From Clostridia bacterium (GTDB lineage: Bacteria; Bacillota; Clostridia; Oscillospirales; CAG-382): a DNA stretch of 64,000 bases. The stretch spans positions 40,028 through 104,027 of the forward strand of contig JAFQAP010000003.1 of the NCBI GenBank assembly GCA_017399965.1, written 5' to 3'. The stretch's first letter is position 1, and each line of letters starts with the position of its first letter. Position numbers and translations under genes: made by a program. Below, piece after piece: positions 360-62,246 of the stretch. The notes beneath the pieces are model-generated. The model saw nothing but the letters and a program-made list of their open reading frames with translations, was not told the origin of the DNA and made no database searches.

Positions 360-726
360 CGTTTTTTGTTTGTTTTTGGGTTTTTATACAGACATCGGTT
401 TGGTGCGAACAGCTTGCGGGATGACGGCGGGGTTCCCCGCAAAACCGCAGGTTTTGTGGGGTGCAGGCGGGGACGTCATCCCCTACGGTCTGCAAACAGC
501 CACGGCTGTTCGATAATCGTAGGGGACGATATCCCTATCGTCCCGCTAATAATTATATTTGTTTTTTGCTCCGCAAAAAACTACCGAAATTCCTCATTTA
601 GCGATGCGAAGCGTCGCGTCGCATTCCCGGGGTTCCCCGAAAACGCTATGCGTTTTTGGGGTGGGTTGCCGGGGTTCCCCGAAAACGCTATGCGTTTTTG
701 GGGTGGGTTCCTCATTCCTCATTTTA
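360..726. repeat. Composite hairpin-repeat island
   Basis: Contains CCCC-N8-loop-N8'-GGGG hairpins at 435-461, 635-661 and 677-703. A 42-nt unit is tandemly duplicated (627-668 / 669-710). Also has the TTTTTTGC-tcc-GCAAAAAA hairpin (about 562-580) and CATTCCT heptads. An inverted homolog lies at 4400-4620. Confidence 0.85.
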
Positions 727-727
727 T

Positions 728-756
728 TTGACATTTTAAGTCTTTCGTTGTATAAT
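728..756 (+). promoter_or_regulatory. Sigma-A-type promoter for the desulfurase-thiI operon
   Basis: TTGACA (728-733), 17-nt spacer, TATAAT (751-756), about 35 nt upstream of the ATG at 789. Confidence 0.5.
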
Positions 757-788
757 ATCTTGTTATTATTTTTTGAGGAAAAACAAAA

Positions 789-1889
789 ATGGCTGTATAC
801 TTCGATTACGCGGCGACGCACCCCACGGAAAAAGAAATAATAGAAAAAAGCTTTTTGTTTTGCGGTAATCCTTCCAGCCCGCACGGGTACGGAATTGAAG
901 CCCGCAAGGCGTTGGAAAACGTGCGCCGGGATCTGGCAAAGGTTTTGGGCTGTACTGCGGACGAGGTCTTCTTTACCTCCGGTGCCACAGAATCCAACAA
1001 TACGGCGATATTCGGTGTGTGCAAGGCGAAAAAGCGGTTTTCCAACCGTATCGTTACCGATGACAGCCAGCATCCCTCTGTGTCTGAGCCTATAAAGGCT
1101 TTGGAGCAGGAGGGCTGGGAGGTCGTACGTGTTTCTACAAAAAACGGCGTTCACGACCAAAAGGAGTTAAAAAACGCTTTTTCCGTTCCCGTAGCGCTGG
1201 CGTGCTTTATGTCGGTAAACAACGAAACGGGCGCAAGGTACGATATTAAAAAAATAAAAAAGATAATAGACACAAGCGGATGCGGCGCGCACCTGCATTT
1301 GGATGCGGTGCAGGGATTTATGAAATGCGACGTTACCTCCGATTACCGTCTGTGCGACAGTATTTCCGTTTCCGCCCACAAGATCGGCGGTTTTAAGGGA
1401 ACGGGAGCTTTGGTTATAAAGAAAAACGCAAAAATAAAGCCGCTTATTGTAGGCGGCGGTCAGGAAAAAGGGTTCAGAAGCGGGACGGAGAATATAAACG
1501 GCATACTCTCCTTCGGGGAAGCCTTAAAGCTGTATAACGCGGAAATGCTGCCCGCGGTGTATGATATGACACTTTCCGCCCTGAAAGAAGTGCCTTACCT
1601 GGAATTCAACCTGCCTTTGAGCAGATGTAACCATATAATATCCTGCATCGCCCGCGGGATAAGAAGCGAAACGCTTATCAACTTCCTGTCGTCAAACGGA
1701 GTATACTGCTCCGCTTCCTCCGCCTGCTCCGCGCGGGCGAAGGGAAACACGGTTTTGGAGGCATACGGTGTTAAACAAGAGGATGTTATCTATGCTCTGC
1801 GCATAAGTGTTTCCCCCAAGACTACCAAAGAAGAAATACTCACCTTAAAAGACGCTCTTTTGCAGGGCGGAGAAAGGCTTTTGAAATGA
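789..1889 (+). CDS. Cysteine desulfurase (NifS/IscS class V aminotransferase family)
   Basis: 366 aa. PLP-lysine context SVSAHKIGGFKGTGAL and C-terminal SSACSA active-site cysteine region. GAGGA RBS 9 nt upstream. ATGA overlap with thiI. Confidence 0.85.
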   Translation: MAVYFDYAATHPTEKEIIEKSFLFCGNPSSPHGYGIEARKALENVRRDLAKVLGCTADEVFFTSGATESNNTAIFGVCKAKKRFSNRIVTDDSQHPSVSEPIKALEQEGWEVVRVSTKNGVHDQKELKNAFSVPVALACFMSVNNETGARYDIKKIKKIIDTSGCGAHLHLDAVQGFMKCDVTSDYRLCDSISVSAHKIGGFKGTGALVIKKNAKIKPLIVGGGQEKGFRSGTENINGILSFGEALKLYNAEMLPAVYDMTLSALKEVPYLEFNLPLSRCNHIISCIARGIRSETLINFLSSNGVYCSASSACSARAKGNTVLEAYGVKQEDVIYALRISVSPKTTKEEILTLKDALLQGGERLLK

Positions 1890-3052
1890 AAGAGATAATT
1901 TTACTTAAATACGGCGAGCTGGTGCTTAAAGGGCTCAACCGTTCCACCTTTGTAGCTCTTGTTGAAAAGAACGTGCGCAAAAAATTAAAAGAGGTGGACG
2001 GTGAATTTACCCTTGAATATTCCCAGTCCACAATGTGTATCACTCCTTCCGACGACGCGGATATCGACACCGCATTCGAAAAAATGCTTACGGTTTTCGG
2101 CGTAGTGTCGGTCTGCCGCGGATATAAGTGCGAAAAGGATATAAACGACGTGCTTTCGGCGGTGCGTGAGCACGCGTTTGAGCTGGCGGGGGGCAAAAAG
2201 ACCTTTAAATGCAACGCAAAACGAAGCGATAAAAAATTCCCCTTGAAATCTCCCGAAATTGCCGCACTCTGCGGTGAGGTCATTTTGGATGAGGTGGGAG
2301 GAATTAAGGTTGACGTAAACCATCCCGAAGTTATCGTGACAGCGGAAATCCGCGATACCGCCGCATACGTTCACGGCAACGGCACCCGCGGCGCAGGGGG
2401 AATGCCTACGGGCAGCAGCGGAAGAGCGCTTCTGCTCCTTTCCGGCGGTATTGACAGCCCCGTTGCCGGATATATGATCGCAAAGAGGGGCGTAACTGTG
2501 GACGGGCTGTATTTCGATTCCCCGCCCTATACCTCGGATCTGGCTATGGAAAAGGTGACCACCCTTGCAAGACGGATAAAGGATTACACGGGCAGTATGT
2601 TTTTGAACGCCATAAGCGTTACGGAAATTCAGGAAGAGATTATGAAAAACTGCGAAGACAGAATGCTTACTCTCCTTCTCCGCCGTTTTATGATGCGCAT
2701 TTCCGATAGAATTGCCCACGAGTTCGGTCAGCAGGCGCTTATCACGGGTGAATCTCTCGGTCAGGTGGCTTCCCAGACCTTGGAAGCCCTTGCCGTTACC
2801 AATGCGGTGCCCACCCTCCCCGTGCTCCGTCCCTGTATCGGTATGGATAAGGTGGAGATAACCGATATCGCCCGCAAGATCGGCACTTTTGAAACTTCTA
2901 TCCTCCCCTACGAGGATTGCTGTACCGTATTCACACCCAAACATCCCCTCACCCGCCCCACCCTGGAGCAGATAGAGGAAGAAGAAAAGAAGCTGGATGT
3001 GGAAGGGCTTATACAGCGCGCCATAGAAACGAGAAGAGTAATAAAAATATAA
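1886..3052 (+). CDS. thiI: tRNA 4-thiouridine(8) synthase ThiI
   Basis: 388 aa. THUMP-like N-terminus and PP-loop motif LLSGGIDSPVAGYM. Translationally coupled to the desulfurase. Confidence 0.9.
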   Translation: MKEIILLKYGELVLKGLNRSTFVALVEKNVRKKLKEVDGEFTLEYSQSTMCITPSDDADIDTAFEKMLTVFGVVSVCRGYKCEKDINDVLSAVREHAFELAGGKKTFKCNAKRSDKKFPLKSPEIAALCGEVILDEVGGIKVDVNHPEVIVTAEIRDTAAYVHGNGTRGAGGMPTGSSGRALLLLSGGIDSPVAGYMIAKRGVTVDGLYFDSPPYTSDLAMEKVTTLARRIKDYTGSMFLNAISVTEIQEEIMKNCEDRMLTLLLRRFMMRISDRIAHEFGQQALITGESLGQVASQTLEALAVTNAVPTLPVLRPCIGMDKVEITDIARKIGTFETSILPYEDCCTVFTPKHPLTRPTLEQIEEEEKKLDVEGLIQRAIETRRVIKI

Positions 3053-3071
3053 AAAAACGGTAAAATAAGTA

Positions 3072-3119: not shown

Positions 3120-3193
3120 AGCGGTATTGTGTAAAGGTAGCACAGCAGACTCTGACTCTGTATGTCTGGGTTCGAATCCTAGTACCGCTGCCA
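3120..3193 (+). tRNA. tRNA-Gln (anticodon CUG), CCA encoded
   Basis: Hand-folded cloverleaf. Acceptor AGCGGTA/TACCGCT, D stem GTGT/GCAC, anticodon stem GCAGA/TCTGT with loop CU-CUG-AC, T arm CTGGG-TTCGAAT-CCTAG, discriminator G, then CCA. Confidence 0.8.
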
Positions 3194-3194
3194 G

Positions 3195-3226
3195 AAAAAA
3201 CGACAAGTTTCGACTTGTCGTTTTTT
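3195..3226 (+). terminator. Rho-independent terminator after tRNA-Gln
   Basis: CGACAAGT-TTCG-ACTTGTCG stem-loop followed by TTTTTT. Confidence 0.8.
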
Positions 3227-3230
3227 CAAT

Positions 3231-3397
3231 TAAATCCGCCTTCTGCGGAATAAATCCACCTGTGGTGGATGAAATCGCTTTGCGATGAAATCTGCCTTGC
3301 GGCAGAAGATGGGCGGATTTGATTTCATCTGAAGCCGAAGGCTGAAGATTTCATCCGAGCTAAGCGAGGATTTCATCGTGCAACGCACGATTTCATT
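3231..3397. repeat. Repeat island with ATGAAAT / ATTTCAT words and small hairpins
   Basis: The left half uses (A/G)TGAAAT linkers and the right half uses GATTTCAT linkers. Hairpins between them include CCACC-tgt-GGTGG, CTGCC-ttgc-GGCAG and CGTGC-aac-GCACG. An outer pairing joins AAATCCGCC (about 3232) with GGCGGATTT (about 3312). Confidence 0.8.
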
Positions 3398-3441
3398 AAC
3401 ATTACTCGGGTTCGAAACCGTATTGCAAAACGCAAAAAATC

Positions 3442-3587: not shown

Positions 3588-4334
3588 TTGAAGATAGTAT
3601 TCTTTAAAAACGAGGAGCATTTTCATCCCCGTATCTCCTATACCTGGGATAACGCAGAGGGGATTGGCTTGAAAACAAAGCTTACAAAATATAAAAGCCT
3701 TTTGGTGTTTGCTTTTGCTGTTCCGTTACTTGTCTTCGTTGTTGTTAATTACGAAACGTTTAAAAGTAATCGGCTGTTGTTGCTCGCTGTTGCCTTTTTA
3801 ACCTTGCCCGTACACGAGATCTGCCACGCTCTTTTTTGTTGGGTAGCCGGTAAAAAGGTAGAAAGAATGTGCTTTTTTCCGTATAAACAGTTTATTACAA
3901 AGCCCACCGCCTACGTAAGACCTGCTTTTGACGTTTGGAAAAAGTATCAGGTAGTTCTGTTTAATTTGTTTCCGTTTATTATATTATCTGCGGTTCCTTC
4001 GGTTTTGGCAATTTTTTGCCCGCCTTTAAGAATGTGGCTTTTGTTGATCTCTTTGCTTAACCTCAGCACTTCGGTTTTCGACATTGTTTCTGTAATTCAT
4101 TATTTGCGTTTTCCCAAGGGGCTTCTTTACTTTTTGCATTTTACCCTGAAGGTTACAGATGCAAAAAAGCCCGTGACCATACATCGGATAGCGGTTACTC
4201 CGAAATTGGATAAGATTTATCATACCTGCTTTGTGTATTCCGAAAACGTTCTTACCGAAACGAAGAACGTTTACGACACCCCCGAAACCATTGCGATAAA
4301 ACAGGAGTTCAAAGAGCAATTTAATATGGAATAA
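3588..4334 (+). CDS. DUF3267-like membrane protein (putative zincin, HExxH)
   Basis: 248 aa with a TTG start and several TM helices. HEICH (HExxH) lies at a TM boundary, as in the DUF3267 family. The assignment is by motif only. Confidence 0.55.
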   Translation: MKIVFFKNEEHFHPRISYTWDNAEGIGLKTKLTKYKSLLVFAFAVPLLVFVVVNYETFKSNRLLLLAVAFLTLPVHEICHALFCWVAGKKVERMCFFPYKQFITKPTAYVRPAFDVWKKYQVVLFNLFPFIILSAVPSVLAIFCPPLRMWLLLISLLNLSTSVFDIVSVIHYLRFPKGLLYFLHFTLKVTDAKKPVTIHRIAVTPKLDKIYHTCFVYSENVLTETKNVYDTPETIAIKQEFKEQFNME

Positions 4335-4860
4335 TATATGTCGCTTGCGCGACGTGATATATTGCGTTCCGCAACGTGATATGCCTTCTCACGAATGCGT
4401 GATAATTATTAGCGGGATGACAAGGATTTACCCCACGAATGCTGTTCGCATTCGCAGGGACCCCAAATCGGACGTCATCCCCTACGATTATCGAACAGCC
4501 GTGGCAACTGCGTAGGGGACGTCGTCCCCGCCTGCACCCCACAAAACCTGCGGTTTTGCGGGGAACCCCGCCTGCACCCCACAAAACCTGCGGTTTTGCG
4601 GGGAACCCCGCCGACGTCCCGTAAACTGTATGCACAAACTGCCGTCCATGAGAACCCAAAGTCCGCACAGACAAGCGATGGTAAAAAATCACCACGAAGG
4701 GGTTATATAAATGAACGAGGTTGCGACAAATCGCAAATGATGTGGGCTATCACCCAACGATGTTACGCCTGCGGCGTAAACGATGTTGCGCTTCGCGCAA
4801 ACGGAATCGTAACCATTTGTTAGGTTCGATGATTTATAGTTGATTATTAACCGAAAGTAT
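4335..4860. repeat. Composite repeat island
   Basis: 4340-4412 has GTGATAT words plus hairpins (GTCGC-ttgc-GCGAC, TTGCG-ttc-CGCAA). 4400-4620 is an inverted homolog of 418-556, including a 40-nt tandem duplication (4528-4567 / 4568-4607). 4690-4850 has AACGATG words plus hairpins (TTACGCC-tgc-GGCGTAA, TTGCGC-ttc-GCGCAA). Confidence 0.85.
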
Positions 4861-5485: not shown

Positions 5486-5692
5486 TTTGGCGTGATACTC
5501 TTAACGGAGTATCACGCCAGTTCTATTCGCCTTTGGCGAGTGATATTGCTACGCAGTGATATTCGGCTTGCGCCGAGTGTTATTCTCTTCGCGAGTTTAT
5601 GGGCGAATAGAATATCACTGTGAGGCGTAGACGAACAATATCACTGCTCGCAAGGGCAATATCACTCTTTGCGAAAGCAAAGAATATCACTC
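5486..5692. repeat. Repeat island with GTGATAT / ATATCAC words and hairpins
   Basis: The left half has GTGATAT(T) words and the right half has (A)ATATCAC words. Hairpins include GGCGTGATACTC...GAGTATCACGCC, TCGGC-ttgc-GCCGA and CTTTGC-gaaa-GCAAAG. A long-range pair joins TTCTATTCGCC with GGCGAATAGAA. Confidence 0.8.
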
Positions 5693-5696
5693 ATAG

Positions 5697-5760
5697 ACAG
5701 CAGAAAAAAGAGAGAGTCTTACGGAATTTTGCTTCCGAAGCACTCTCTCTTCTGTTTTTA
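5697..5760. terminator. Large bidirectional terminator-like hairpin
   Basis: CAGAAAAAAGAGAGAG...CTCTCTCTTCTG stem followed by TTTTT on the + strand and by a T-run on the - strand. It lies between convergent genes. Confidence 0.55.
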
Positions 5761-5854: not shown

Positions 5855-7372
5855 TTATTCCGATACGGTTGATTTTTTGGTTACGTAATCCTTTACAAGC
5901 TGGCGGAACTCCTCTTTATAGGGGTCTTGAGAAAGGTCCAATTTCTCCAATCCGGCGATAAGCTCGTCGAAATTTGCATCGCCCTTGTATTCGGATTCGC
6001 GGAGCAACAGCGCAAATTCCACAACGCCCGCCACAAAGGAATCGGTTTCGGTGGGAATTTCGTGGTATGCCGACGTCTTTATATCCAGAGTGAGTGTTTC
6101 GTCGGTATTTTCACTGCTTACGTTTTCGGTGGGCTTGTATTTTATAACCACCTGGGCAAGATTTTCCTGTGCCTTATGCGCTTTTTCTGTCAGCTTTATC
6201 TCGTACACCACGGTGACGGTGTGACCGCTGCCCAATTCCCCTGCATCTGTGGATTCGTCGTTAAACTGTTCCTCGGTAAGCAGTTTGTTTTCGTAGCCTA
6301 TCAGACGGTAACTTTCCACGTATTCGGGATTAAAGGTGATACCGGCTTTTACGTCCTTCGCCACGGTGACCATACTGCCGCCGATCTGTGTGACCAGCGC
6401 ACGGCGCGCTTCGGTCTGGGAATCAATGTAGCTGTAGGTACCGTTTCCGTTGAGAGCGAGAGTTTCCATGGTTTCGGATTTAAGATTGCCTCTGCCTACT
6501 CCGAACACCGAAAAATACACGCCGGATTCTCTTTTTTCGGATATAAGCTCTTTGAGCGCATCTACGTTGGTGATACCTACGTTAAAATCACCGTCGGTAG
6601 CTAAAATCACACGGTTGTTGCCGCCTTCGATAAAATATTTTTCCGCAAGGGAATAGGCGGCTCTTATTCCCTTACTGCCAGCGGTGCTTCCGCTTGCGGC
6701 AAGGTCTTCGATAATTGCGGTTATTTTTTGCTTTTCGTAACCGAAAGCGCCCTCCAAAACGATCCCTTCCTTGCCCGCATAAGTGACAATGGAAACACGG
6801 TCTTCGGGGTTAAGGTTTTCCGCAAGCATCATAAACGCGGATTGTACCAAGCCCAGCTTATCGGCAGAAAACATAGAGCCGCTTACATCAATAAGAAAGA
6901 CAAGGTTGTTTTTAACCGAGGTAAACTCCACCGCCTGCGCCGCCAAGCCTATGGTGAGAAGCTTGGTTTGGCTGTTGTAGGGTGTATCAAACACCGAAGA
7001 TGTGAGCGCAAGCACCGAACCGTCCTCGGGGGTGGCGTAATCGTAATCAAAATAATTGAGCATTTCCTCTACGCGCACAGCATCCTTGGGAATACTGTAT
7101 CCGTTTTTGATAAGACTGCGCAGATTGGGATAAGCCGCTGTGTTTGCATCAATGGAAAAATAACTGCTGTCCTGTTCGGTGGTTAAAACAAACTTGTTTT
7201 CAATAATTTCGGTGTAGGTCTCGCCGTTTTCGCCAAGCATTTCGTCTGCCAACGGGCTTCCGTTGGTGTAGTAACCGTCCATCGCATCGTAAGCCGGACT
7301 GCACGCCGCCGAAACCAACATAGCTGATAAAAGAACAAAAGCGAAAATAATTTTTGTTGCTTGTTTTTTCAT
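5855..7372 (-). CDS. von Willebrand factor type A domain lipoprotein (YfbK-like)
   Basis: 505 aa. Lipobox LVSAAC and MIDAS motif LIDVSGSM. The N- and C-terminal regions are typical of vWA/DUF3520 architecture. GGAGGG RBS. Confidence 0.75.
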   Translation of the reverse strand: MKKQATKIIFAFVLLSAMLVSAACSPAYDAMDGYYTNGSPLADEMLGENGETYTEIIENKFVLTTEQDSSYFSIDANTAAYPNLRSLIKNGYSIPKDAVRVEEMLNYFDYDYATPEDGSVLALTSSVFDTPYNSQTKLLTIGLAAQAVEFTSVKNNLVFLIDVSGSMFSADKLGLVQSAFMMLAENLNPEDRVSIVTYAGKEGIVLEGAFGYEKQKITAIIEDLAASGSTAGSKGIRAAYSLAEKYFIEGGNNRVILATDGDFNVGITNVDALKELISEKRESGVYFSVFGVGRGNLKSETMETLALNGNGTYSYIDSQTEARRALVTQIGGSMVTVAKDVKAGITFNPEYVESYRLIGYENKLLTEEQFNDESTDAGELGSGHTVTVVYEIKLTEKAHKAQENLAQVVIKYKPTENVSSENTDETLTLDIKTSAYHEIPTETDSFVAGVVEFALLLRESEYKGDANFDELIAGLEKLDLSQDPYKEEFRQLVKDYVTKKSTVSE

Positions 7373-7469
7373 TGTTTATCCCTCCTTGCCCTTATTTTAC
7401 CATTATAAATATATGTATGTCAATATTAATGCATAAAAATTTACATATATGAAAACTTATCGTAAAAAC

Positions 7470-7812
7470 TGCCGTCTGTAATAACCCAAAATCTGCATAG
7501 ACTATCGTCTATAGAACTCAAAGTTCGCACAAACAAGCGTCTGTAGAACTCAAAGTCTGCACAAACAAGCGATGGTAAAACGCTGGAGAAAAGGTCTTTC
7601 GCGAGCGGTAGCTGTAGTAATCTACAGCCAGCGAAGCGAAAGCCTTTAAAAAACGCAAAATAAAGATAAAAGAACTTCCGTAGATTTTTCTACGGAAGTT
7701 TTCCTTTAATTATGGGTGTTCGGCAGGAGCAAGCCCCTGCCCTACATTTGGAAACGCACTGAACAGAACGATTTATTTCTTGCGTTTTTGGTCTACAGTG
7801 CTTTTACCGAGC
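7470..7812 (-). repeat. Family-B composite repeat (about 300 nt), inverted orientation
   Basis: Reverse complement aligns with 37812-38070, 27013-27325 and 39005-39310. Shared modules are tgtaGGGC.GG...CC.GCC, CCGTAGA-aaaa-TCTACGG, GCTGTAGnnnnCTACAGC and cagcgttttaccatcgct. Confidence 0.85.
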
Positions 7813-8628: not shown

Positions 8629-8770
8629 AATGAGGAATGAGGAACGAGGAACCCACCCCAAAAACGCATAGCGTTTTCGGGGAACCCCGGGAATGAGAAA
8701 CGAGAAACTATGGTTGATTTTTGCCCCAAGGGGCAAAAATCTTCCTTTTCTTTTCACTCTTCACTCTTCA
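8629..8770. repeat. Family-A island inside the pgk-tpiA intergenic space
   Basis: In order: AATGAGG heptads, the CCCC..GGGG hairpin (8656-8682, reverse form), GATTTTTG-CCCCaaGGGG-CAAAAATC (8716-8741), then TCACTCT heptads. The pgk stop codon (8768-8770) lies in the last heptad. Confidence 0.85.
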
Positions 8771-9973
8771 CTGCTTGTCGTTAAGACAAGCTATGCCGGG
8801 CAGTTCCAAACCTTCAAGAAATTCGAGGGATGCTCCGCCGCCGGTGGAAATGTGGGTGATCTTATCGCCGAAGCCGAGAGTCTGGCAAGCTGCTGCGGAA
8901 TCGCCGCCGCCTACGATAGTGATAGCGTCGGAATCTGCAAGCGCCTGTGCAACTGCCTTGGTGCCTACTGCGAGAGTGGGATTTTCAAATACGCCCATAG
9001 GTCCGTTCCAGATAACGGTCTTTGCGCTCATAACAGCGTTTGCAAACAGCTCTCTGGTTGCGGGACCGATATCAAGACCCTGCATATCCTCGGGGATAGC
9101 GTCTGCGGAAACGGTAACGGTTTCGATCTCTGCATCAATAGGATCGGGGAAGGATTTTGCGCAAACGGTGTCTACGGGGAGAAGAAGCTTTACGCCCTTT
9201 TCCTCTGCTTTTTTCATCATTTCTACGCAGTAATCGAGCTTGCTTTCGTCGAGCAGGGACTTACCGATACCCTTACCCTGAGCCTTGAGGAAGGTATATG
9301 CCATACCGCCGCCGATGATGAGAGTATCGACCTTTTCAAGCAGGTTGTTTATAACGTTAAGCTTATCGGAAACCTTTGCGCCGCCGAGAATAGCTACCAA
9401 AGGTCTGTCGGGATCGGCAAGAGCCTTACCCATAACGGTAATCTCTTTGTTTATAAGATATCCGCATACTGCAGGGAGGTAATCAGCTACACCTGCGGTG
9501 GAAGCGTGTGCTCTGTGTGCGGTACCAAAAGCATCGTTTACATAGATATCTGCCAAAGAAGCCAGCTTTTTGGCAAATTCGGGATTGTTCTTTTCCTCTT
9601 CTGCGTGGAAGCGAACATTCTCAAGCAGCATACATTCGCCTGCTTTGAGAGCTGCAGCCTTTGCAACTGCGTCTTCGCCTACAACGTCCTTTGCCAGAGC
9701 AACTTCGATACCGAGGCACTCGGAAAGGCGGGCTGCAACGGGAGCGAGAGTGTACTTCATGTTGAATTCACCCTTGGGTCTGCCAAGGTGGGAGCAAAGA
9801 ATTACTGCCGCGCCGTTTGCAAGGAGGTATTTGATGGTGGGAAGTGCGCCCTGAATACGGTTATCGTCTGTGATAACGCCGTCCTTAAGGGGTACGTTGA
9901 AATCGCAGCGAACAAGAACTTTTTTGCCCTGAACGCTGATATCCTCTACGGATTTCTTATTTACGTTGGTCAT
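8768..9973 (-). CDS. pgk: Phosphoglycerate kinase
   Basis: 401 aa from the ATG at 9973, with GAGGTG 7 nt upstream. The track start at 9982 is a GTG inside that RBS. Contains the motifs [10 protein letters not shown] and STGGGASLE. Confidence 0.95.
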
Positions 9974-10043
9974 TTTATTCACCTCATAAATTTATTTCTT
10001 TTCAATTAATTATCTTACCATATTATGCCGATAAATGCAAGAG

Positions 10044-11460: not shown

Positions 11461-11620
11461 GTTTCACGTGAAACAAAAAGAAGAGAAGAGAGAAGAGAGA
11501 AAAGAGAAAAGAAACGGAAGATTTTTGCCCGAAAGGCAAAAATCAACATTCATTCCTCGTTCCTCGTTCCTCATTCCTCATTCGTTTGCGCGAAGCGCAA
11601 ACGCTGTTTCACGTGAAACA
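11461..11620. repeat. Family-A island
   Basis: A GTTTCACGTGAAAC palindrome sits at both ends. Between them are a GA-rich arm, GATTTTTGCCcgaaaGGCAAAAATC (11520-11544), CATTCCT/CGTTCCT heptads and TTTGCGC-gaa-GCGCAAA. Confidence 0.85.
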
Positions 11621-16735: not shown

Positions 16736-16967
16736 TTAAATACTCCTTTCCGGTTGCATATATAATACTTTTGAAACGGCAAAAAGGTTACATAAAAAAT
16801 TTTTTAAAAAACTTGGCACATTTATTTTACCATATTATTCCTACATTTTCAATTATGCAAAATTGCCGAATATACCGCGCCTTTTTTGTCGGGGTCCCCA
16901 AGAAGTCGCAGACTTCTTGGGGTGATTATGCAGGGAAAACAAAGGGCATTTTTATTTGTGTAAAAAT

Positions 16968-16996
16968 TTGACAAATGGGCGTTTACGTGGTATACT
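16968..16996 (+). promoter_or_regulatory. Strong sigma-A-type promoter
   Basis: TTGACA (16968-16973), 17-nt spacer, TGgTATACT extended -10 (16988-16996). Confidence 0.6.
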
Positions 16997-17031
16997 GTAT
17001 TCAAAAGAACAAATGTTCGGAAAGGAAAAGT

Positions 17032-17466
17032 ATGATAAAAGTAAACGTAAAAGTGTTTAAAGACCGTCTGGAAGCAGAAAAAACCCCCGTGATGCGGCTG
17101 TGCGGGGGAGAGGACGTATGTCTTGTTTTCTACGTGCCCGAGTTTTTGCGGGGGGAACACAAGTATTATCTGCGGTTTTCCACGGCGCAGCAGGCAAAAC
17201 GCGGGGGAATGTCGGTAACGGGAGAGATAGAATGTAAAAACGGTGTGATACTTTACTGTTTGCCCAAATCCCTTACGGAAACGGAAAATCTGGGAATACA
17301 GCTTTTGGCGGTAAACAAAAAAGAGCGGGTGTTTTCCCCGGTTTTAAAGGAAGGGCTTACTTTTTCGGAGGATCGCCCCTGCGGGCAAAGAAACGGAACA
17401 AAGACACTTTTTAATTTTTACGATATAAACGATTACGCGGCGAGGAAAGGGGAACTGCCGTTTTGA
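17032..17466 (+). CDS. Hypothetical protein (possibly phage-derived)
   Basis: 144 aa from MIKVNVKVF, with a GGAAAGGAAAAG RBS. No recognisable motif. The neighbours look prophage-like. Confidence 0.5.
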   Translation: MIKVNVKVFKDRLEAEKTPVMRLCGGEDVCLVFYVPEFLRGEHKYYLRFSTAQQAKRGGMSVTGEIECKNGVILYCLPKSLTETENLGIQLLAVNKKERVFSPVLKEGLTFSEDRPCGQRNGTKTLFNFYDINDYAARKGELPF

Positions 17467-17700
17467 ATGATGAATGAGGAAACACCGTCTGTAGCAGTAA
17501 AATCTAAAGGACGCGGAGCATTTGGATGCAGAAGCCTTTTTCGCGAGCGGGGAGCTGTAGTAACCTACTGCCTCCCGAGCGAAAATGGCTACAAAAACGC
17601 AAATAAAATAAAATTTTGAAGACGATTTTCGTCGGAAAAATTTTCACCTATTTTCTGTAATTAAAGCGGCGGAGGCAAGCCATCCGCCCTACAAACGGAA
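17467..17700 (-). repeat. Family-B composite repeat, inverted orientation, preceded by ATGATGAATGAGG words
   Basis: Reverse complement aligns with 39060-39300. Carries the GGCGGA...TCCGCC variant of the tgtaGGGCGG hairpin, plus GACGA-ttt-TCGTC. Confidence 0.85.
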
Positions 17701-17788
17701 GATAACTGCACGAAAATATTTATATGTTTTTGCGTTTTTGGTTCTGCGCCGAATGAACGCGTACATACAAAGAAAGGAAATTAATAAT

Positions 17789-24642: not shown

Positions 24643-24685
24643 ATATCTTTCTCCCGATAAAAAGATGTTTTTCATATTCCAACAT

Positions 24686-38369: not shown

Positions 38370-38375
38370 GAATAG

Positions 38376-38995: not shown

Positions 38996-38996
38996 T

Positions 38997-39332: not shown

Positions 39333-39899
39333 ATGAAAAACATTAAAGAAAAATCCAAACGCCGTGCGCGGCGGATATGGATCACCTTTGCATTTATATT
39401 CAGCTTTTTTATGACCGCCCTCCTCTCCCTTATGTCGGGCGAGGCGTTGGAGGATCTTCCCGTTTGGGCAGCGCTGGCGGTGCTGCTTATCTTTATTTTG
39501 CTGGGCATTGTGTTCGATATGATCGGACTTGCGGTCACCACGGCGGATATTTCCGCTTTTAACGCAATGGCGGCAAAAAAAGACCCCGTGGGAAAGCGGG
39601 CTGTATGGCTTATCGCCAATGCGGAAAAGGTGTCCTCCTTTTGCAACGATATAGTGGGTGATATTTGCGGTGTCGTTTCCGGTGCTTCGGCGGCTTCCAT
39701 TGCGGTGGTGCTGTTTTCCCGGCTTGATTACGAGCTGTCGTTTTGGCTTACGCTGTCTCTCACGGCGCTGGTTTCCTCCATCACTGTGGGAGGAAAGGCG
39801 CTGGGCAAGCGTATAGGTATGGATAAAAGCAGGGAAATAACCCTTTTTGTTGCAAAGGTGCTTTGCATATTCACAAAAAAAGAGAGAAAGAAACAGTAA
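39333..39899 (+). CDS. oapA: OLE-associated membrane protein OapA-like (4 TM helices)
   Basis: 188 aa with a basic N-terminus, four predicted TM helices and DIVGD in TM3. Located between the ncRNA and dxs. Confidence 0.6.
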   Translation: MKNIKEKSKRRARRIWITFAFIFSFFMTALLSLMSGEALEDLPVWAALAVLLIFILLGIVFDMIGLAVTTADISAFNAMAAKKDPVGKRAVWLIANAEKVSSFCNDIVGDICGVVSGASAASIAVVLFSRLDYELSFWLTLSLTALVSSITVGGKALGKRIGMDKSREITLFVAKVLCIFTKKERKKQ

Positions 39900-45404: not shown

Positions 45405-45528
45405 GAATGAGGAATGAGGAATGCGCCGCGTTGCTTCGCACCGCTAAATGAGGAATTTCGGAAGATTTTTGTTCGTTACGAACAAAAATCAACCATCATT
45501 TCTCATTCATCATTCATCATTCCTCATT
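45405..45528 (+). repeat. Family-A island
   Basis: In order: AATGAGG heptads, the aatgCGCCGC...GCTAAATGA module, GATTTTTG-TTCGttaCGAA-CAAAAATC (45464-45490), then CATTTCT/CATTCAT/CATTCCT heptads. Confidence 0.85.
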
Positions 45529-48937: not shown

Positions 48938-49070
48938 AATGAGGAATGATGAATGCGACGCGATGCAAAGCATCGCTAAATGATGAATGATGGAAACCTT
49001 TTTCACGCTTCGCGTGAAAAAGCTACCGAAATTCCTCATTCCTCATTCCTCATTCCTCATTTTCATCATT
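48938..49070. repeat. Family-A island
   Basis: In order: AATGAGG/AATGATG heptads, GCGATGC-aaa-GCATCGC, CTTTTTCACGC-ttc-GCGTGAAAAAG, then CATTCCT heptads. The pyrR stop (49066-49068) lies in the last word. Confidence 0.85.
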
Positions 49071-49608
49071 CCAGCCCTGCGGGCTCTAATATTGCTACTT
49101 CCGTTTTTCCGTCCAATTCTTTGACACGCACCGCAATTTTTTCTTTGCGGGAGGTGGGCACGTTTTTACCCACGTAATCGGCACGTATGGGCAACTCTCT
49201 GTGGCCTCTGTCAATAAGGGCGGCAAGGCGTATGGCGGCAGGTCTTCCGCAAAGCATTACCGCCTCAATGGCGGCGCGTACCGTTCTGCCGGTGTATAAA
49301 ACGTCGTCCACCAGCACCACCGTCTTTCCTTCCACCGCAGTCTTTAAAGGGGTTTTTTCGGTCTTGCGTATGTTTCCGTTATCATCCCGGAAGGGGGAAA
49401 CGTCCAGCTCCTCCACGGAAACCTCTACCCCGTAGGAGTTTTTTATACGCATGGCTATTCGGTTTGCAAGGGGAAGCCCTCTGCGGCGTATACCCACAAG
49501 GCATATGGAGGATATGTCCTCGTTTTTTTCCACTATCTCGTGGCTTATGCGGGTGAGCGAGCGTTCCAGTGCCTGCTCGTCCAGCAGTATGGTCTTTTCT
49601 CTGTACAT
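49066..49608 (-). CDS. pyrR: Bifunctional pyr operon regulator / uracil phosphoribosyltransferase PyrR
   Basis: 180 aa. PRPP motif VVLVDDVLYTGRTVRAA and IDRGHRELPI. Confidence 0.9.
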   Translation of the reverse strand: MYREKTILLDEQALERSLTRISHEIVEKNEDISSICLVGIRRRGLPLANRIAMRIKNSYGVEVSVEELDVSPFRDDNGNIRKTEKTPLKTAVEGKTVVLVDDVLYTGRTVRAAIEAVMLCGRPAAIRLAALIDRGHRELPIRADYVGKNVPTSRKEKIAVRVKELDGKTEVAILEPAGLE

Positions 49609-49786
49609 ATATTCCGCCTTTAAGGTATATAATTTTACTTCATAACAGATATTATACTGTTTTTTTAATATAAGTCAACACATTTCTTACATATTAATAA
49701 TTAATTAACAGCTATTTTCGTTGACAAACGAGGGCTTTTGTAATATAATATTATATCTGTAAAATGCGGAAGGAGGCGTTTTCGTT

Positions 49787-50575
49787 TTGGGCAGATGTGT
49801 TTTTGTAACATCCTTTAAAGGCGGTGTGGGAAAAAGCTTTGTTTCCGCCAATCTTGCGGGTGCATTAACAAATCTGGGCAAAAAAGTTCTTGTTGCGGAC
49901 GGGGACTTAGGTATGCGCAGTATGGATATCCTGCTGGGCTGTGAAAACGCTTCGCTTTTTGATATCAAGGACGTTATATCCGGCGCTTGTCCCGTGGAAA
50001 AAGCGATAATTAAAGCAGAAAAAGCCGGCTTTCCCGATTTCATTCCCGCACCCCAGACCTATGACGGATCTACGCTGGATAAAGAGCGCACCCACGCATT
50101 GTTTACATACCTTAAAAGCGTGTACGATTACGTGCTTATAGATTCCTCTGCGGAATATTCGCCCTATTATTCGCTTCTTGCATCCTGCGCGGATACGGCG
50201 GTCATCGTTACCGCCCATCAGTCCACGGCGGTGCGTGCGGCAGAAAAAACCGCATCGCTTCTTGCAAAGGAAGGGTTAAAGGAGCAATATCTGGTAATAA
50301 ATATGTTCCGCAAAAAAGAAGCGGAAAAAGGCTTGCTGCCCGACCCTGCGGATATTATCCTGAATTCCGCCGTACCTCTTTTGGGAATTGTCCCTTGGGA
50401 TAAAAATGCGGCGACAGAGGCGGAAAAGGGCGGAATTGCTTTTTGCAGCCGCAAAGGCAAAGCATATTCCTTTGAAGCGGCGGCAATAAATATAGCCTAC
50501 CGTCTGTGCGGAAACGAGGTTCCCTTGTTTAAAGGGGTTTACCGCACCTTAAGAAGAAAATTCTATCTTAAATAA
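49787..50575 (+). CDS. MinD/ParA-family P-loop ATPase (MinD-like; no minC or minE nearby)
   Basis: 262 aa with a TTG start 9 nt after GGAAGGAGG. Deviant Walker A SFKGGVGKS and DGDLGMRSMD. Confidence 0.7.
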   Translation: MGRCVFVTSFKGGVGKSFVSANLAGALTNLGKKVLVADGDLGMRSMDILLGCENASLFDIKDVISGACPVEKAIIKAEKAGFPDFIPAPQTYDGSTLDKERTHALFTYLKSVYDYVLIDSSAEYSPYYSLLASCADTAVIVTAHQSTAVRAAEKTASLLAKEGLKEQYLVINMFRKKEAEKGLLPDPADIILNSAVPLLGIVPWDKNAATEAEKGGIAFCSRKGKAYSFEAAAINIAYRLCGNEVPLFKGVYRTLRRKFYLK

Positions 50576-50610: not shown

Positions 50611-51009
50611 ATGGAAATAGCAATTATCGCCAACGATAAGAAAAAAGAGCTTATCACCGAATTCTGCATAGCATATTGCGGAGTGCTTGCCAAGCACAAC
50701 ATCTGTGCAACAGCTACGACAGGAAAATACATAAGCGAAGCAACGGGACTCAAAGTTACCCGTATGCTTGCAGGCTCTCACGGCGGAGCAGAGCAGATCG
50801 CTGCCCGTATAGCGTATAACGAGATCGACCTGGTTATCTTCCTGCGCGACCCCAATACGGATGCAGAGTATATAGATACCACGCTTCAGGTCATCCGTCT
50901 GTGCGATAGCCATAACATCCCCGTTGCAACCAATATCGCAACTGCGGAGGCGCTTATTCTGGCGCTCGGCAGAGGAGACCTTGATTGGAGAGAGATTCAG
51001 AGAAAATGA
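50611..51009 (+). CDS. mgsA: Methylglyoxal synthase
   Basis: 132 aa. Contains IAIIANDKKKEL, ATATTGKYI and GSHGGAEQIAA. The stop TGA lies inside the first AATGAGG word of the next island. Confidence 0.85.
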   Translation: MEIAIIANDKKKELITEFCIAYCGVLAKHNICATATTGKYISEATGLKVTRMLAGSHGGAEQIAARIAYNEIDLVIFLRDPNTDAEYIDTTLQVIRLCDSHNIPVATNIATAEALILALGRGDLDWREIQRK

Positions 51010-51105
51010 GGAATGATAAATGATAAATGATGAATGATGGTTGATTTTTGTTCGCAGAACAAAAATCTTCCGTAATTTCTCATTCCTCATTCCTCATTCA
51101 TCATT
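51004..51105 (-). repeat. Family-A island (inverted relative to 52389-52515)
   Basis: In order: AATGAGG/AATGATA/AATGATG heptads, ATGGTT, GATTTTTG-TTCgcaGAA-CAAAAATC (51043-51067), CTTCCG, then CATTCCT/CATTCAT heptads. Confidence 0.85.
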
Positions 51106-52388: not shown

Positions 52389-52515
52389 ATGAGGAATGAG
52401 GAATGCGACGCTCTTGCAAGCAAGAGCTAAATGAGGAATTTCGGAAGATTTTTGTTCGCAGAACAAAAATCAACCATCATTCATCATTCATCATTCATCA
52501 TTTCTCATTCCTAAT
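52389..52515 (+). repeat. Family-A island between hisS and aspS
   Basis: In order: AATGAGG heptads, GCTCTTGC-aa-GCAAGAGC, CGGAAG, GATTTTTG-TTCgcaGAA-CAAAAATC (52447-52471), AACCAT, then CATTCAT heptads. Confidence 0.85.
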
Positions 52516-52552
52516 TCTTCACTATACTTTGAAAGAAGGCAAAATTAAAACC

Positions 52553-56031: not shown

Positions 56032-56045
56032 GGAGGTAATACACA

Positions 56046-60032: not shown

Positions 60033-60034
60033 AT

Positions 60035-60745: not shown

Positions 60746-60749
60746 ATAT

Positions 60750-60845
60750 CATTTTACGGGGTGCTGTATAATATATATACGGCTGAGAATATACCCGATG
60801 AACCTGTCAGATAATACTGTTGAAGGGAGAAGACGTGTAAAAAAC
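60750..60845 (+). promoter_or_regulatory. TPP (THI-box) riboswitch aptamer
   Basis: Reads acGGGGTGC...GCTGAGA..ACCCgaTGAACCTGtcaGATAATACtgttGAAGGGA, which matches the THI-box consensus blocks. Upstream of thiT. Confidence 0.85.
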
Positions 60846-60866
60846 GTCAAAATGGTAAAAAATTAT

Positions 60867-60904
60867 CGGCTTGTTCTGCAAAAATATAGAACAAGCCGTT
60901 TTTT
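60867..60904 (+). terminator. Riboswitch expression-platform terminator
   Basis: CGGCTTGTTCT...AGAACAAGCCG stem followed by TTTTTT. Confidence 0.8.
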
Positions 60905-60977
60905 ATCGGGGTCCCCGAGAAGCCGTTAGGCTTCTTGGGGTGATTTGACGAGATAAATCCACGTCGTAATTTTAAAA

Positions 60978-61523
60978 ATGAACAAAAAACTTAAAGAACG
61001 CTTATTGATCGTTTGCGAGTGCGGTATAACCGTAGCTCTCGCTCTGGCGCTTTGTCCGCTGGAATTGGATTTCGCTTGGCTTCAGGGCGGCGGAATCGAC
61101 ATACTTATGGTGCCTCTGGTAATCCTTGCTTTGCGCCGCGGCGCAGGATGGGGTATCGCCACGGGAGCCACCTTCGGTATTTTAAAATATCTGCTTTGGT
61201 CTTCCGGCGGATACGGAATACCCTCAATTTTACTGGATTACGTTTTGGCATACGCCGCTGTTGGAACAGCAGGTTTCTTTAAAAAAGGCATCACAGGCAC
61301 AGCCGTTGCAACGGGAGTGCGCTTTATCGTGCACTTTATAAGCGGTGTAACCATATACGCTATCACAGCTTCGGAAACGGTGTACGGTATCACCACCGCT
61401 TCCCCCTTTATATACTCTATTGTATATAACGCGCCCTACGTTTTGGCAAACGGTATAATTTGCGCGGTAATAGTTGTATTGCTCGAAAAACCTATGAGCA
61501 AAATACCAAAGAATTTCAAGTAA
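60978..61523 (+). CDS. thiT: ECF transporter S component for thiamine (ThiT)
   Basis: 181 aa with six TM helices, directly downstream of the TPP riboswitch. Confidence 0.75.
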   Translation: MNKKLKERLLIVCECGITVALALALCPLELDFAWLQGGGIDILMVPLVILALRRGAGWGIATGATFGILKYLLWSSGGYGIPSILLDYVLAYAAVGTAGFFKKGITGTAVATGVRFIVHFISGVTIYAITASETVYGITTASPFIYSIVYNAPYVLANGIICAVIVVLLEKPMSKIPKNFK

Positions 61524-61544
61524 AGATTCTTTAGCAAGCAGGAT

Positions 61545-61578
61545 ACAAAAAACTCCCGAAAACATCGGGAGTTTTTTA
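61545..61578. terminator. Bidirectional rho-independent terminator
   Basis: AAAAAACTCCCGA-aaaca-TCGGGAGTTTTTT between convergent genes. Confidence 0.8.
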
Positions 61579-61616
61579 ATGATAAATGATGAATGATGAA
61601 TGAGGAATTTCTCATT

Positions 61617-62246
61617 CTATTCAGCTTTAGGTAATGACCATTTAAACCTTGCCGCAAGAAAGCGTATTACGATAATAACCACTGCGGAAACCGACATCGC
61701 CGCGGTTGCGCCCAGAGGTTTCCAAAGCAAAGCACAAAGAACTGCTCCCGCAAGGGATGCGGATGCGTATATGTGCTTTACGAATATGTAAGGCGTGTTG
61801 CCTGCCATCATATCACGGAGCAGACCGCCGCCCACACCGGTAACAACGCCCACAAACACCAGCAGAAACAGGTTTTCACCGTGTCCCGTGCCGATAGCGG
61901 TGCGTATACCCATTACCGTAAAGATGCCCAGCCCCACAGAATCGGTTATAAGCAAAAATATATCAAAAACTCTTGGATTTTTGCCTGCCAGCCTTCGTAC
62001 CGCGGGGATAAAGGTAAGTATTCCCGTGGCAACGGCAACCAGAGCGTAAACGGGGTTTCTGAACGTCATCGGCGGTGTATTGCCCAACACGATATCCCGT
62101 ATCGCCCCGCCGCCCACGGCTGTCACAACGGCGAGTATCACCACGCCGAAAATATCCATTTTCTTTTTGAGCCCGGTAATTGCGCCGGAAATGGCGAAAG
62201 CCACCGTGCCGAAAAGCTCAAAAACAAAGGCGAGCGTTTCTATCAT
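61617..62246 (-). CDS. TRIC/UPF0126 family membrane protein (YadS-like)
   Basis: 209 aa. Two UPF0126 repeats with GTVAFAISGA..G and GGG.IRD / GGGLLRD motifs. Confidence 0.8.
   Translation of the reverse strand: MIETLAFVFELFGTVAFAISGAITGLKKKMDIFGVVILAVVTAVGGGAIRDIVLGNTPPMTFRNPVYALVAVATGILTFIPAVRRLAGKNPRVFDIFLLITDSVGLGIFTVMGIRTAIGTGHGENLFLLVFVGVVTGVGGGLLRDMMAGNTPYIFVKHIYASASLAGAVLCALLWKPLGATAAMSVSAVVIIVIRFLAARFKWSLPKAE

Follow-up and report, generated by a model that had tools for sequence, protein, structure and literature searches.

In this study, we undertook a computational analysis of the intergenic islands in a 64-kb stretch of Clostridia bacterium DNA (contig JAFQAP010000003.1; the whole stretch is referred to as the window), which an earlier reading of the sequence alone, here called the sequence-only reading, had described as arrays of 7-nt words and small hairpins assembled into long mirror-image structures. 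That reading had proposed one shared construction for all the islands, whereas we find that they belong to several families: family A, rod-like hairpins with arms of tandem heptads; modules B and C, which are nested in those arms; element D, a longer composite; and class E, arrays of words and hairpins. Class E is the Rfam family Gut-1 (RF01706), and Gut-1, as far as sequence comparison can tell, makes up one arm of a mirror-image island, which is a dispersed and palindromic DNA repeat. On balance, we lean towards the view that the islands are mosaics of small non-coding hairpin repeat families, of the kind represented by repetitive extragenic palindromic (REP) sequences, bacterial interspersed mosaic elements (BIMEs) and miniature inverted-repeat transposable elements (MITEs), which are selfish or neutral and are mobilised in trans via a folded single strand.

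Twelve period-7 runs were found in the window and none in 30 shuffled sequences, which confirms the tandem heptad arrays that had been reported at the listed sites. Together the listed islands total 4429 nt, in keeping with the 4–5 kb estimated previously, and 4363 nt (98.5%) of this lies outside genes. The latter represents 49% of the 8862 nt of non-coding DNA, as defined against the curated genes and RNAs of the window, that is, about half of it and not most of it as had been supposed; the repeats make up ~7% of the window sequence. Within the 64 kb there are ~15 copies of family A, ~11 of module B, five of module C and five of element D. The islands are palindromic at several scales, as the description of them as mirror images implied, except that the one at 4335–4860 comprises two left-arm-type arrays and has no mirror image.

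The closest relatives of the window at the species level are metagenome-assembled genomes (MAGs) labelled Oscillospiraceae or Clostridia from the gut of cattle, buffalo and yak, whose HisS proteins are 92–96% identical to that of the window; all HisS matches beyond these are ~60% identical. Three related loci (L002, L003 and L004) are collinear with the window from 41 to 62 kb at 84–88% nucleotide identity. It is extremely improbable that the islands are artefacts of short-read metagenome assembly, even though repeats are a classic source of mis-assembly and the sole exact match of the window (L001) may share its sample. Independent MAGs from cattle, buffalo, yak and other studies have the architecture at the same junctions, within collinear conserved coding sequence, and the same mirror layout is seen in Gut-1 seeds that come from Sanger gut metagenomes of the 2007 era. 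Comparison with independent assemblies recovered the same architecture in MAGs and contigs from other animals and studies (L002–L005 and L082–L087), and an assembly artefact is for practical purposes ruled out.

Family A has the form (AATGAGG)n, a core GGAAGA-T5-stem-A5-TCAACC and (CATCATT)n. Its 5′ arm consists of tandem purine-rich heptads (AATGAGG, AATGATG, AACTATG, AGTGAAG and AAGAGAG), its 3′ arm of complementary-type words (CATCATT, CCTCATT and CCTCGTT), and its full core reads AATTTC-GGAAGA-T5-G[variable stem-loop]C-A5-TCAACC-AT. The purine-rich left arm and complementary pyrimidine right arm noted at the outset are borne out by the folding of these islands as rods of 100–150 nt, which both strands adopt, with RNA free energies of -33 to -57 kcal/mol and z-scores of -4.8 to -8.5 in seven of eight folds, the exception being the plus strand of 34518–34667 (z -2.4). 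In sub-family A1 the rod is a series of 5–6 bp helices interrupted by a 1x1 mismatch at every seventh base, as left words terminate in AGG and right words, once reverse-complemented, terminate in ATG; sub-families A2 and A3 have other frames.

The central hairpins do have the constant outer and variable inner stems first described: in 25 family A cores from nine sources the outer frame is invariant, while the inner stem takes ~9 forms, each perfectly paired. Covariation in the cores is marked, with 96.5% of cells paired versus 28–52% with slid partners, and with four pairs showing double-sided changes, a number reached by none of 500 shuffles. The core has a single asymmetry, an internal loop of unpaired AA.AA that reads TT.TT on the opposite strand; it is unchanged in 26 of the 26 cores retrieved by an unbiased search. 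Loops of the same core were found as reverse complements of each other (gca/tgc). Cores of the T5-hairpin-A5 type number 13 in the 64-kb window versus four in 1.12 Mb of distant relatives. A metagenome scan for the A1 core returned six short contigs, which provide extra copies and too little sequence to reveal a parent element. Separately, an exact A1 core and frame, TTACGGAAGA-T5-GATCCC..GGGATC-A5-TCAACC, occurs at 1750–1800 of a GC-rich contig from an apparently unrelated organism (L084, Ga0335083_10177864), where the flanks have a faint 7-nt register and no recognisable words.

Modules B and C are each ~40 nt long. Module B, compared in 18 copies from the window and its relatives, has the form CC-GGGG-T(T)-CCCC-[stem-loop]-GGGG-TG-GG with an inner stem that takes four or five alternative forms, and in most copies there is a G.T wobble at the fifth pair. 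Module C, represented by 11 distinct copies, has the form AAT-GCGACGC-[hairpin]-GCTAAATGA and lies one word from the core in either arm, in the orientation that matches the arm. The module was originally noted as AATGCGACGC-hairpin-GCTAAATGA in both orientations, and these we also found, on the plus strand at 45423, 48955 and 52405 and on the minus strand at 31757 and 622. Module C carries GACG/CGTC on the side opposite to that in the published REP layout. Two copies of module B stand alone, both on the plus strand: one of the GGGGTCCCC subtype at 16888–16931, directly after the T-run of a terminator, and one at 60905–60946, between the terminator of a thiamine pyrophosphate (TPP) riboswitch and the thiT start codon. 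The latter, ~40 nt with clean borders, is present in the window and absent in L002, L003 and L004, and it might affect expression of the riboswitch-regulated thiT-like gene. In addition, the module C variant TCTTGCAAGCAAGA is found in the hisS-aspS island of the window and in the island downstream of recN in L002. Clean presence or absence between species and the occurrence of the same variant at different loci indicate that modules B and C are separate insertion units.

Comparison of orthologous junctions revealed that the islands turn over rapidly. Ordinary spacers, such as the promoter region at 49600–49800 and the TPP leader, are conserved among the collinear species, whereas the islands at the same junctions differ. 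The mgsA-hisS junction has four word sets and two core sub-families in five species. At 48905 (island 48938–49070), the left arm and the module C hairpin are common to the window and L002, whereas L002 has its core in reverse and with a different inner stem. At 61578 the window has family A arms only (61578–61616, no core), L002 has a full element, L003 has another and L004 is essentially empty. The island downstream of recN (45405–45528) is present in L003 as an exact inverted copy with an extra module B. The 9-mer Jaccard index was 0.157 for orthologous islands, hardly above the 0.143 for paralogous islands, and 0.100 for unrelated pairs, and 10 of 27 orthologous pairs had no 9-mer in common. 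Families A–C were found, among 80 loci, only in L002–L004 and were absent from 76 loci of more distant Clostridia; from these distributions, families A–D appear to be specific to one uncultured Oscillospiraceae genus and class E to be wider among gut Clostridia. The hisS-aspS spacer has a median length of ~12 nt in 26 distant relatives versus 113–198 nt in this genus, and the islands are therefore gains in ancestrally tight junctions.

Elements of the same design were also found outside the chromosome. A phage-like contig with portal, terminase and Rep genes (L088, IMGVR_UViG_3300031555_005697) has family-A-like elements at 7227–7333 and 7416–7524, and both are missing from a second contig, L090, with a Rep 91% identical to that of L088. 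A relaxed pattern applied to viral sequences gave more than 120 chance matches and, after filtering, no true hairpin. Taken together, the copy number, lineage restriction, clean module insertions and deletions, variants shared between loci, nesting, in-place inversion, gain in a phage and lack of orientation bias (see below) argue for repeats that act at the DNA level and colonise dispensable DNA with fast turnover.

Some of the same observations could be accounted for if the islands were not mobile at all and arose in place by heptad slippage, fold-back or template-switch synthesis, and ectopic gene conversion among copies that share words. The arms differ in length and composition by whole words, the loops of one core occur as reverse complements, one island is inverted in place, and template switching could produce perfect stem pairing without selection. 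We nevertheless consider an origin of this kind distinctly unlikely. Solo ~40-nt modules with clean borders sit at sites without word homology (60905 and 16888), unrelated loci and different species share identical module variants, and the same design has been gained in a phage genome. In addition, the unpaired AA.AA is kept in every core examined, although template switching should erase it.

The position of the islands relative to genes is highly regular. At 11 gene ends the stop codon lies within or directly against the first word, with zero spacer, and at six further gene ends a terminator hairpin is followed at once by words. On their far side, islands end 18–35 nt before the next start codon. 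They occupy the space between the upstream stop codon or terminator and a point just short of the next ribosome-binding site (RBS) or promoter. The mgsA orthologues take their stop codon from whichever word is present: AATGAGG provides TGA, AACTAGG provides TAG and AAGTGAAG provides TGA. When read inward, arms contain 11.1 stop triplets and 8.7 Shine-Dalgarno (SD)-like tetramers per 100 nt; when read outward, they contain 1.4 and 0, compared to window averages of 3.4 and 1.1. All three frames are stopped in 13 of 22 arms, something that comes easily with a 7-nt period. The argument from stop codons is partly circular, as an ORF must end at the first stop, and the solid fact is that there is no spacer between coding sequence and island. 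Many islands must be transcribed, as they are located inside operons (pgk-tpiA, mgsA-hisS-aspS and proS-gtrA). By eye, six cores are in the sense and six in the antisense orientation relative to transcription, and the corresponding numbers for module B are two and four. This lack of bias gives no grounds for a strand-specific RNA role, although it is also no argument against a role in RNA, because a palindromic element works either way.

A role of that type is the substance of another explanation, under which selection maintains the islands as RNA elements acting in cis. As rod hairpins at gene borders or in 3′UTRs, they would terminate translation, sequester SD-like and AUG words, shield upstream mRNA against 3′ exonucleases and tune read-through into the cistron that follows. 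Several results are in its favour, including the occupation of the same operon junctions by islands in each species of the genus that was examined, their start exactly at stop codons with the downstream RBS left intact, the strong polarity of stop codons and SD-like motifs, and the stable rod folds, whose periodic mismatches would avoid long perfect double-stranded RNA. The G.T (G.U) wobble in most module B copies fits as well, as do the classification of Gut-1 as RNA on covariation by Rfam and Weinberg et al. (2010) and the existence of such roles for the REPs of Escherichia coli. However, words, cores and modules at a given junction are replaced wholesale between species, distant relatives manage with ~12-nt spacers, and both the AA.AA loop and the wobble strand of module B are equally often sense and antisense. 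Furthermore, the islands at 45405, 5486 and 360–726 lie where transcription should be low, between two terminators or in regions of divergent promoters, solo modules have inserted after terminators and into a phage, and the stop-codon argument has the circularity noted above. We therefore regard selection for such a function as the origin of the islands as rather unlikely. As a secondary effect, the hairpin of an island probably does stabilise upstream mRNA or attenuate read-through, by analogy with the REPs of E. coli, which are partial terminators and stabilisers of upstream mRNA (bioRxiv 10.64898/2026.03.23.713779).

The phage-like contig raised the question of an origin of replication. The two family-A-like elements of L088 lie 290 nt from its Rep gene (PF23343; phrog_3584, E 1.5e-32). 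Rolling-circle origins have tandem direct repeats beside a hairpin, and the layout of the islands resembles this, so that the word arrays might be iterons with the hairpin as the nick site of an HUH Rep, or else binding arrays for a DNA- or RNA-binding protein with a 7-nt register. We consider this very improbable, because L090, which has the same conserved region upstream of rep, is without both elements, because ~15 copies occur within 64 kb of chromosome, inside operons and with no Rep gene nearby, and because the words differ between islands of one genome. The comparison with L090 led us to reject a link to an HUH Rep or rolling-circle origin. Immediately ahead of its Rep start, L088 also carries a 21-nt repeat (3 x 7 nt) rich in GA, and it has a separate 27-nt tandem repeat (6941–7000 and 912–999).

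Two regulatory candidates were also considered. Binding of a HutP-, TRAP- or CsrA-like protein to NAG or GGA motifs spaced by 7 nt fits poorly, as the words differ too much between islands. The expectations for an invertible promoter switch, inverted repeats around a promoter and an invertase close by, do not hold, as in-place inversion was seen between species but Pfam finds no recombinase; reading the 20–35 nt cores by eye, with no formal scan, we noted no promoter-like sequence.

In class E, 7–8-nt words (GTGATAT, ATGAAATC, CGTGATAT and AACGATGT) alternate with variable hairpins of 10–18 nt, and at 3227–3398 and 5486–5692 the array is followed by a mirror arm with the complementary word. 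The Rfam model of Gut-1 matches 5518–5588 on the plus strand with 51.4 bits against a gathering score of 50, and other arms in the window score below threshold (41, 36.5, 30.9 and 30.7 bits). The consensus of that model is UGAAAU-hairpin-GUGAAAU-hairpin-GUGAAAU-hairpin-GUGAAAU, to which class E arms conform in having three variable hairpins with GUGAAAU or GUGAUAU words between them. The sequence-only reading could match the islands to no known family, which is incorrect for the arrays of words and hairpins. A match to a catalogued family was one of the outcomes that it had named as refuting it, and this applies to that module class only. A strict word-hairpin detector, which misses the island at 5486, found such arrays in distant relatives and none in shuffles. 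In the relatives L017, L031 and L034, Gut-1 scores 54–69 bits, and in L031 it matches both strands of one island, head-to-head. This arrangement, together with the position after terminators, argues against a simple gene on one strand.

Gut-1 was described from 43 examples, all in human-gut metagenomes, with no function proposed, and was classed as RNA on covariation (Weinberg et al. 2010, PMC2864571); we found no later paper on it. The flanks printed in the published seed alignment show the same mirror arm (AUAUCAC and hairpins), and on the far side of one seed there is a plain array of tandem heptads, (AUUUUCA)n. Thus, Gut-1 is modelled in Rfam as a stand-alone small RNA gene from human gut metagenomes, whereas here it is one arm of a mirror island, located after stop codons or terminators in Clostridia MAGs from the ruminant gut and sometimes joined to family-A-like cores or plain heptad arrays. 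The distant loci L034 and L040, which are few cases, have Gut-1-type arms and cores with a T-run, hairpin and A-run like those of family A, arranged around a central palindrome. These hybrid islands and the one Gut-1 seed lend some support to the earlier idea of a shared grammar, although they do not justify treating the 21 islands as one group.

The class E mirror island at 3227–3398 has (A/G)TGAAATC words with mini-hairpins on the left and GATTTCAT with mini-hairpins on the right, scores 41 (+) and 30.7 (-) bits for Gut-1, and has a DNA fold z of -6.5. That at 5486–5692, between convergent genes, has GTGATAT on the left and ATATCAC with hairpins on the right, scores 51.4 (+, 5518–5588) and 36.5 (-, 5633–5734) bits, and has an RNA fold z of -10.2. 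An array of CGTGATAT and mini-hairpins at 4331–4410 (+, 30.9 bits) begins at the stop codon of a DUF3267 gene, and an array of AA(A/C)GATGT with three variable hairpins at 4735–4805 (+) is of the left-arm type and has no mirror arm. Two further observations concern Gut-1. First, 3120–3398 contains tRNA-Gln, a terminator hairpin and then at once the Gut-1-type island, the same order as in the published seed BAAZ01025322. Second, a long-range pairing in 5486–5692 encloses the whole arm, joining TTCTATTCGCC at 5521–5531 with GGCGAATAGAA at 5604–5614. An equivalent pairing, with a compensatory change, occurs in the seed BAAZ01000095 (UUAUAUUCGCC...GGCGAAUAUAA), and another is found in L017 (~13850 with ~13940). 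This pairing is outside the Rfam structure and competes with the first local hairpin of the model.

Element D differs from the other families in having no word arms. It is a MITE-like composite of ~300 nt, and its five copies are 74–88% identical, with ends that are imperfect inverted repeats and pair imperfectly. The tetranucleotides GTAG/CTAC are 5.3 times denser in D than in the whole window, and all five copies hold a REP-like unit, TGTAG-GGCGGGtGGCttGCCcCCCGCC, which is an imperfect GC-rich palindrome. GTAG-tagged hairpins also occur in doublets at 400–560 and 4475–4520. The copies of D are located at 7470–7812 (+), where a sub-module of ~40 nt is triplicated at the 5′ end; within 17467–17761 (+), where the words AATGATG and AATGAGG abut the stop codon of ORF 16975–17466 and precede the copy; and at 27005–27312 (-) and 37812–38082 (-), the latter upstream of the OLE RNA. 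The fifth, at 38997–39310 (-), follows right after the OLE RNA and overlaps its end by ~12 nt. One internal hairpin of D alternates between CCGTAG-ATTTTT-CTACGG and AGACG-ATTTT-CGTCG among the copies (7470–7812, 17484–17761, 27005–27312, 37812–38082 and 38997–39310). The GTAG and CGTC tags define two REP superfamilies (Di Nocera et al. 2013), and the two alternatives of the hairpin correspond to these tags. Two stretches are other composites. That at 400–560 consists of a module B variant (429) and an inverted, REPIN-like doublet of GTAG-tagged hairpins around a central hairpin, and it recurs inverted at 4475–4640; that at 4410–4700 contains a GTAG-hairpin doublet, two copies of module B on the minus strand (4569 and 4609) and a D-type sub-module (4632–4686). 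A D copy compared to a plasmid collection and a family A island compared to a phage collection gave no similarity match. A general enrichment of GTAG-tagged hairpins was rejected, as set out below, and only the unit of element D is a real repeat.

How might such islands be formed? Under the reading that we favour, mosaics of mobile non-coding repeats, the small modules would owe their insertion to an enzyme that acts in trans from a gene elsewhere, reads a folded single strand and most likely belongs to the HUH type. It would act as the REP-associated tyrosine transposase (RAYT) does on REPs or as TnpA of the insertion sequences (IS) IS200/IS605 does on its ends. In IS200/IS605, the protein reads a folded single strand, and the contrast in the islands between invariant frames with never-repaired unpaired bases and variable but always-paired inner stems would suit a protein of this type. 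Reading of this sort is also established for REP and RAYT, where an unpaired AA/GC at the edge of the REP loop is required for cleavage (PMC3733652). The heptad arms would lengthen and shorten by replication slippage, recombination between the inverted arms could flip the centre, and quasi-palindrome template switching may help to keep the stems paired. Once transcribed, islands would fold into rods of 100–150 nt with a mismatch at every seventh base, and an inward arm, which offers stop codons in as many as three frames and whose SD-like motifs are sequestered by the other arm, would make an island harmless to the ORF that it abuts.

Several results weigh against this interpretation. Every species examined in the genus has islands at the same junctions, as selection for function would also give, and the replacement of whole islands without flanking homology lacks a mechanistic account. 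The insertions of module B are compatible with target duplications of 0–4 nt (TC, TT and TTCC), which are ambiguous, and whole islands show no evident duplication. Pfam detected no mobilising enzyme among the window ORFs tested. A tblastn search of 1.28 Mb of related loci with an approximate IS200 TnpA query gave nothing below E = 0.1, a weak test that is uninformative on RAYTs. The only HUH gene near an element, the Rep of L088, was disproved as a linked partner. Families A–C have no GTAG tag, which defines the substrates of RAYTs, and classical REPs or MITEs have no tandem heptad arms, which are present here. Finally, GTAG with GC-rich hairpins is not enriched in the window (8 versus 1–6 in shuffles).

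The sequence-only reading had likened the islands to the BOX elements of Streptococcus pneumoniae and to REP/BIME, and in general terms this is apt, as they are modular, nested, palindromic at several scales and confined to intergenic DNA. The REP, BIME and REPIN sequences of Enterobacteria and Pseudomonas (PMC3733652, PMC3116915, PMC2817692) are short imperfect palindromes in hundreds of copies that are strictly extragenic and mostly lie downstream of genes or between tandem and convergent ones. Like the islands, REPs and BIMEs are mosaics of alternating orientation with conserved unpaired bases, are lineage-specific, are kept at orthologous sites and mostly have no adjacent transposase. The islands, too, are high-copy extragenic sequences in inverted pairs or clusters, and element D and the composite at 400–560 hold units of GTAG and an imperfect GC-rich palindrome. 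They differ in that neither GTAG nor CGTC occupies the defining tag position in families A–C, in that the islands are rods of 100–150 nt with heptad arms and a mismatch every 7 nt whereas REPs are hairpins of 20–40 nt without arms, and in that no RAYT was found in the window or, by the weak tblastn search, in the related loci. Membership in the RAYT-linked REP class is therefore not established, the GTAG tag being confined to D and a few doublets.

The resemblance to BOX lies in modularity, a variable number of internal units, stable hairpins, an intergenic non-coding nature and a Firmicute host. BOX has three fixed modules (A, B and C), and other Firmicute repeats include RUP and Bcr. The sequences of the islands are unrelated to BOX, as Gut-1 is the only Rfam family that matched them, and their architecture is one of heptad arms and nested variable-core hairpins rather than three fixed modules. 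MITEs such as Correia/NEMIS, ERIC and RPE (PMC3184786) are non-autonomous, have inverted ends, are 100–300 nt long and co-transcribed, and can donate stop codons or extend ORFs. In the islands, the arms of family A are inverted word arrays and the ends of D are imperfect terminal inverted repeats, although there is no clear target-site duplication (0–4 nt, ambiguous) and the arms are variable in length and internally repetitive. An autonomous IS with island ends was not seen in the window or related loci, for which no dedicated search was made. Tandem heptamers dispersed in the intergenic DNA of one lineage are also found in heterocystous cyanobacteria, where the short tandemly repeated repetitive (STRR) heptanucleotide sequences, reportedly described by Mazel and colleagues in 1990, are reported to be plain tandem arrays; by description only, the islands differ in their paired inverted arms around a core hairpin that is conserved.

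The window consists of housekeeping DNA of an uncultured anaerobic Firmicute (by Pfam, IscS/ThiI, PGK-TIM, SecG, ProS, HisS-AspS, ABC transporters and acetate kinase), and a 7.3-kb stretch identical to it is present on the metagenome scaffold ENA ERZ28654059. Among the window ORFs tested with Pfam there was no transposase, integrase, recombinase or Cas domain, which agrees with the earlier statement that the window has no transposase, integrase or Cas gene. Pfam and Rfam identified the classic OLE RNA neighbourhood dxs-tlyA-nadK-argR-recN. The OLE RNA is full-length (38363–39009, +, 386 bits) and is bracketed by two copies of D in the same orientation. The downstream copy shares ~12 nt with the end of the OLE match and lies between OLE and ORF 39333–39899, which has a weak CNNM-like match. 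Within 60747–60977, the TPP riboswitch (54.8 bits) is upstream of the thiT-like transporter gene.

The remaining family A islands illustrate the regularity of their placement. Those of sub-family A1 include 8629–8772 (-) at the pgk-tpiA junction, with module B nested at 8650–8690 and the pgk stop codon in an AGTGAAG word; 23125–23244 (-) at the proS-gtrA junction, which extends from the proS stop to 18 nt short of the gtrA start; 31652–31775 (+), with module C in its right arm and the hom stop codon in its first word; 35486–35606 (+), which has the same core variant as at 34557 and abuts the stop codon of ORF 35606–36037(-); and 51004–51105 (-) at the mgsA-hisS junction, with the mgsA stop codon in its first word. 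Two A1 islands have a GA-rich left arm, 34517–34667 (+), with module B at 34615 and, on the minus strand, the TMEM164 stop codon in its first word, and 11478–11602 (+). The latter has a palindrome, GTTTCACGTGAAAC, on both sides, at 11461 and 11606. Exactly two copies of this palindrome occur in the window (11461–11474 and 11606–11619) versus 0 expected by chance, both bracketing this one island, and it also ends an island in L086, a contig from a metagenome. Its nature could be that of an operator, of a target duplication or of a further module. Module C accompanies the A1 islands at 45405–45528 (+), between the two terminators of convergent genes, and at 52389–52515 (+) at the hisS-aspS junction, which begins at the hisS stop codon.

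Sub-family A2 is represented by 24721–24842 (+), after the terminator of an ABC transporter gene, with the core CGGTAGC-T6-CGCG..CGCG-A6-GGTTTCC and the words AACTATG and CCTCGTT, and by 48938–49070 (-) at the PRT-GT2 junction, with module C and the PRT stop codon in its first word. Right halves of family A with an A3 core are found at 27313–27426 (-), with module B at 27369 and abutting the DUF1854 stop codon, and at 38083–38195 (-), with TCTCGTT words and a module B variant at 38151. A further right half at 560–726 (-), upstream of the iscS promoter, has the core TTTTTTGCtccGCAAAAAA-CTACCGAAATT, the reverse complement of module C at ~597–625, tandem copies of module B at 629 and 671, and then CCTCATT words.

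The islands have practical consequences for annotation and assembly. Gene callers give false N-terminal extensions, as at 52403–52540, where AspS is called from an ATG inside the island although its Pfam domains are complete from 52541. They also give spurious ORFs, long examples of which start in or cross islands at 366–731, 8693–10009(+) and 23188–24660(+); these result from outward arms having no stops and inward arms having ATG and GAGG. The repeats will fragment short-read assemblies. In addition, covariation of stems within a genome can mimic selection on RNA and thereby confound the discovery of RNA motifs.

In the literature, we found no description of families A–D or of such repeats in Clostridia, and the 2013 REP survey (PMC3733652) mentions neither Firmicutes nor Clostridia. 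Four aspects of the islands are unusual: arms of heptads in which a mismatch recurs periodically and stops fall in three frames, the abutment of islands on stop codons with zero spacer, a density that is very high for a Firmicute, and the new interpretation given to Gut-1. A more far-reaching possibility, which we regard as quite improbable, is that dedicated machinery across gut Clostridia writes and maintains mirror arrays at gene ends and reads AA.AA, Gut-1 being one face of it. If this were true, the arrays would be a continually rewritten gene-end module (three-frame stop, SD sequestration and protection of mRNA 3′ ends), and intergenic DNA would be actively formatted rather than passively colonised.

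On present evidence, the islands do not amount to a new kind of system, and their description and a search for the enzyme are worthwhile. The orphan Gut-1, known since 2010 and without a function, gains an anatomical context as the arm of a dispersed palindromic repeat, which shifts experiments on it towards a DNA-level mobiliser and strand-symmetric transcription and away from a small RNA target. The invariant AA.AA loop amid changing stems represents a precise handle for finding the protein that recognises the elements, and the presence of different content at the same junction in each species is a natural experiment. A REP-like density of repeats is unusual for a Firmicute, and as this lineage is absent from earlier REP surveys, the islands extend the range in which such systems are found.

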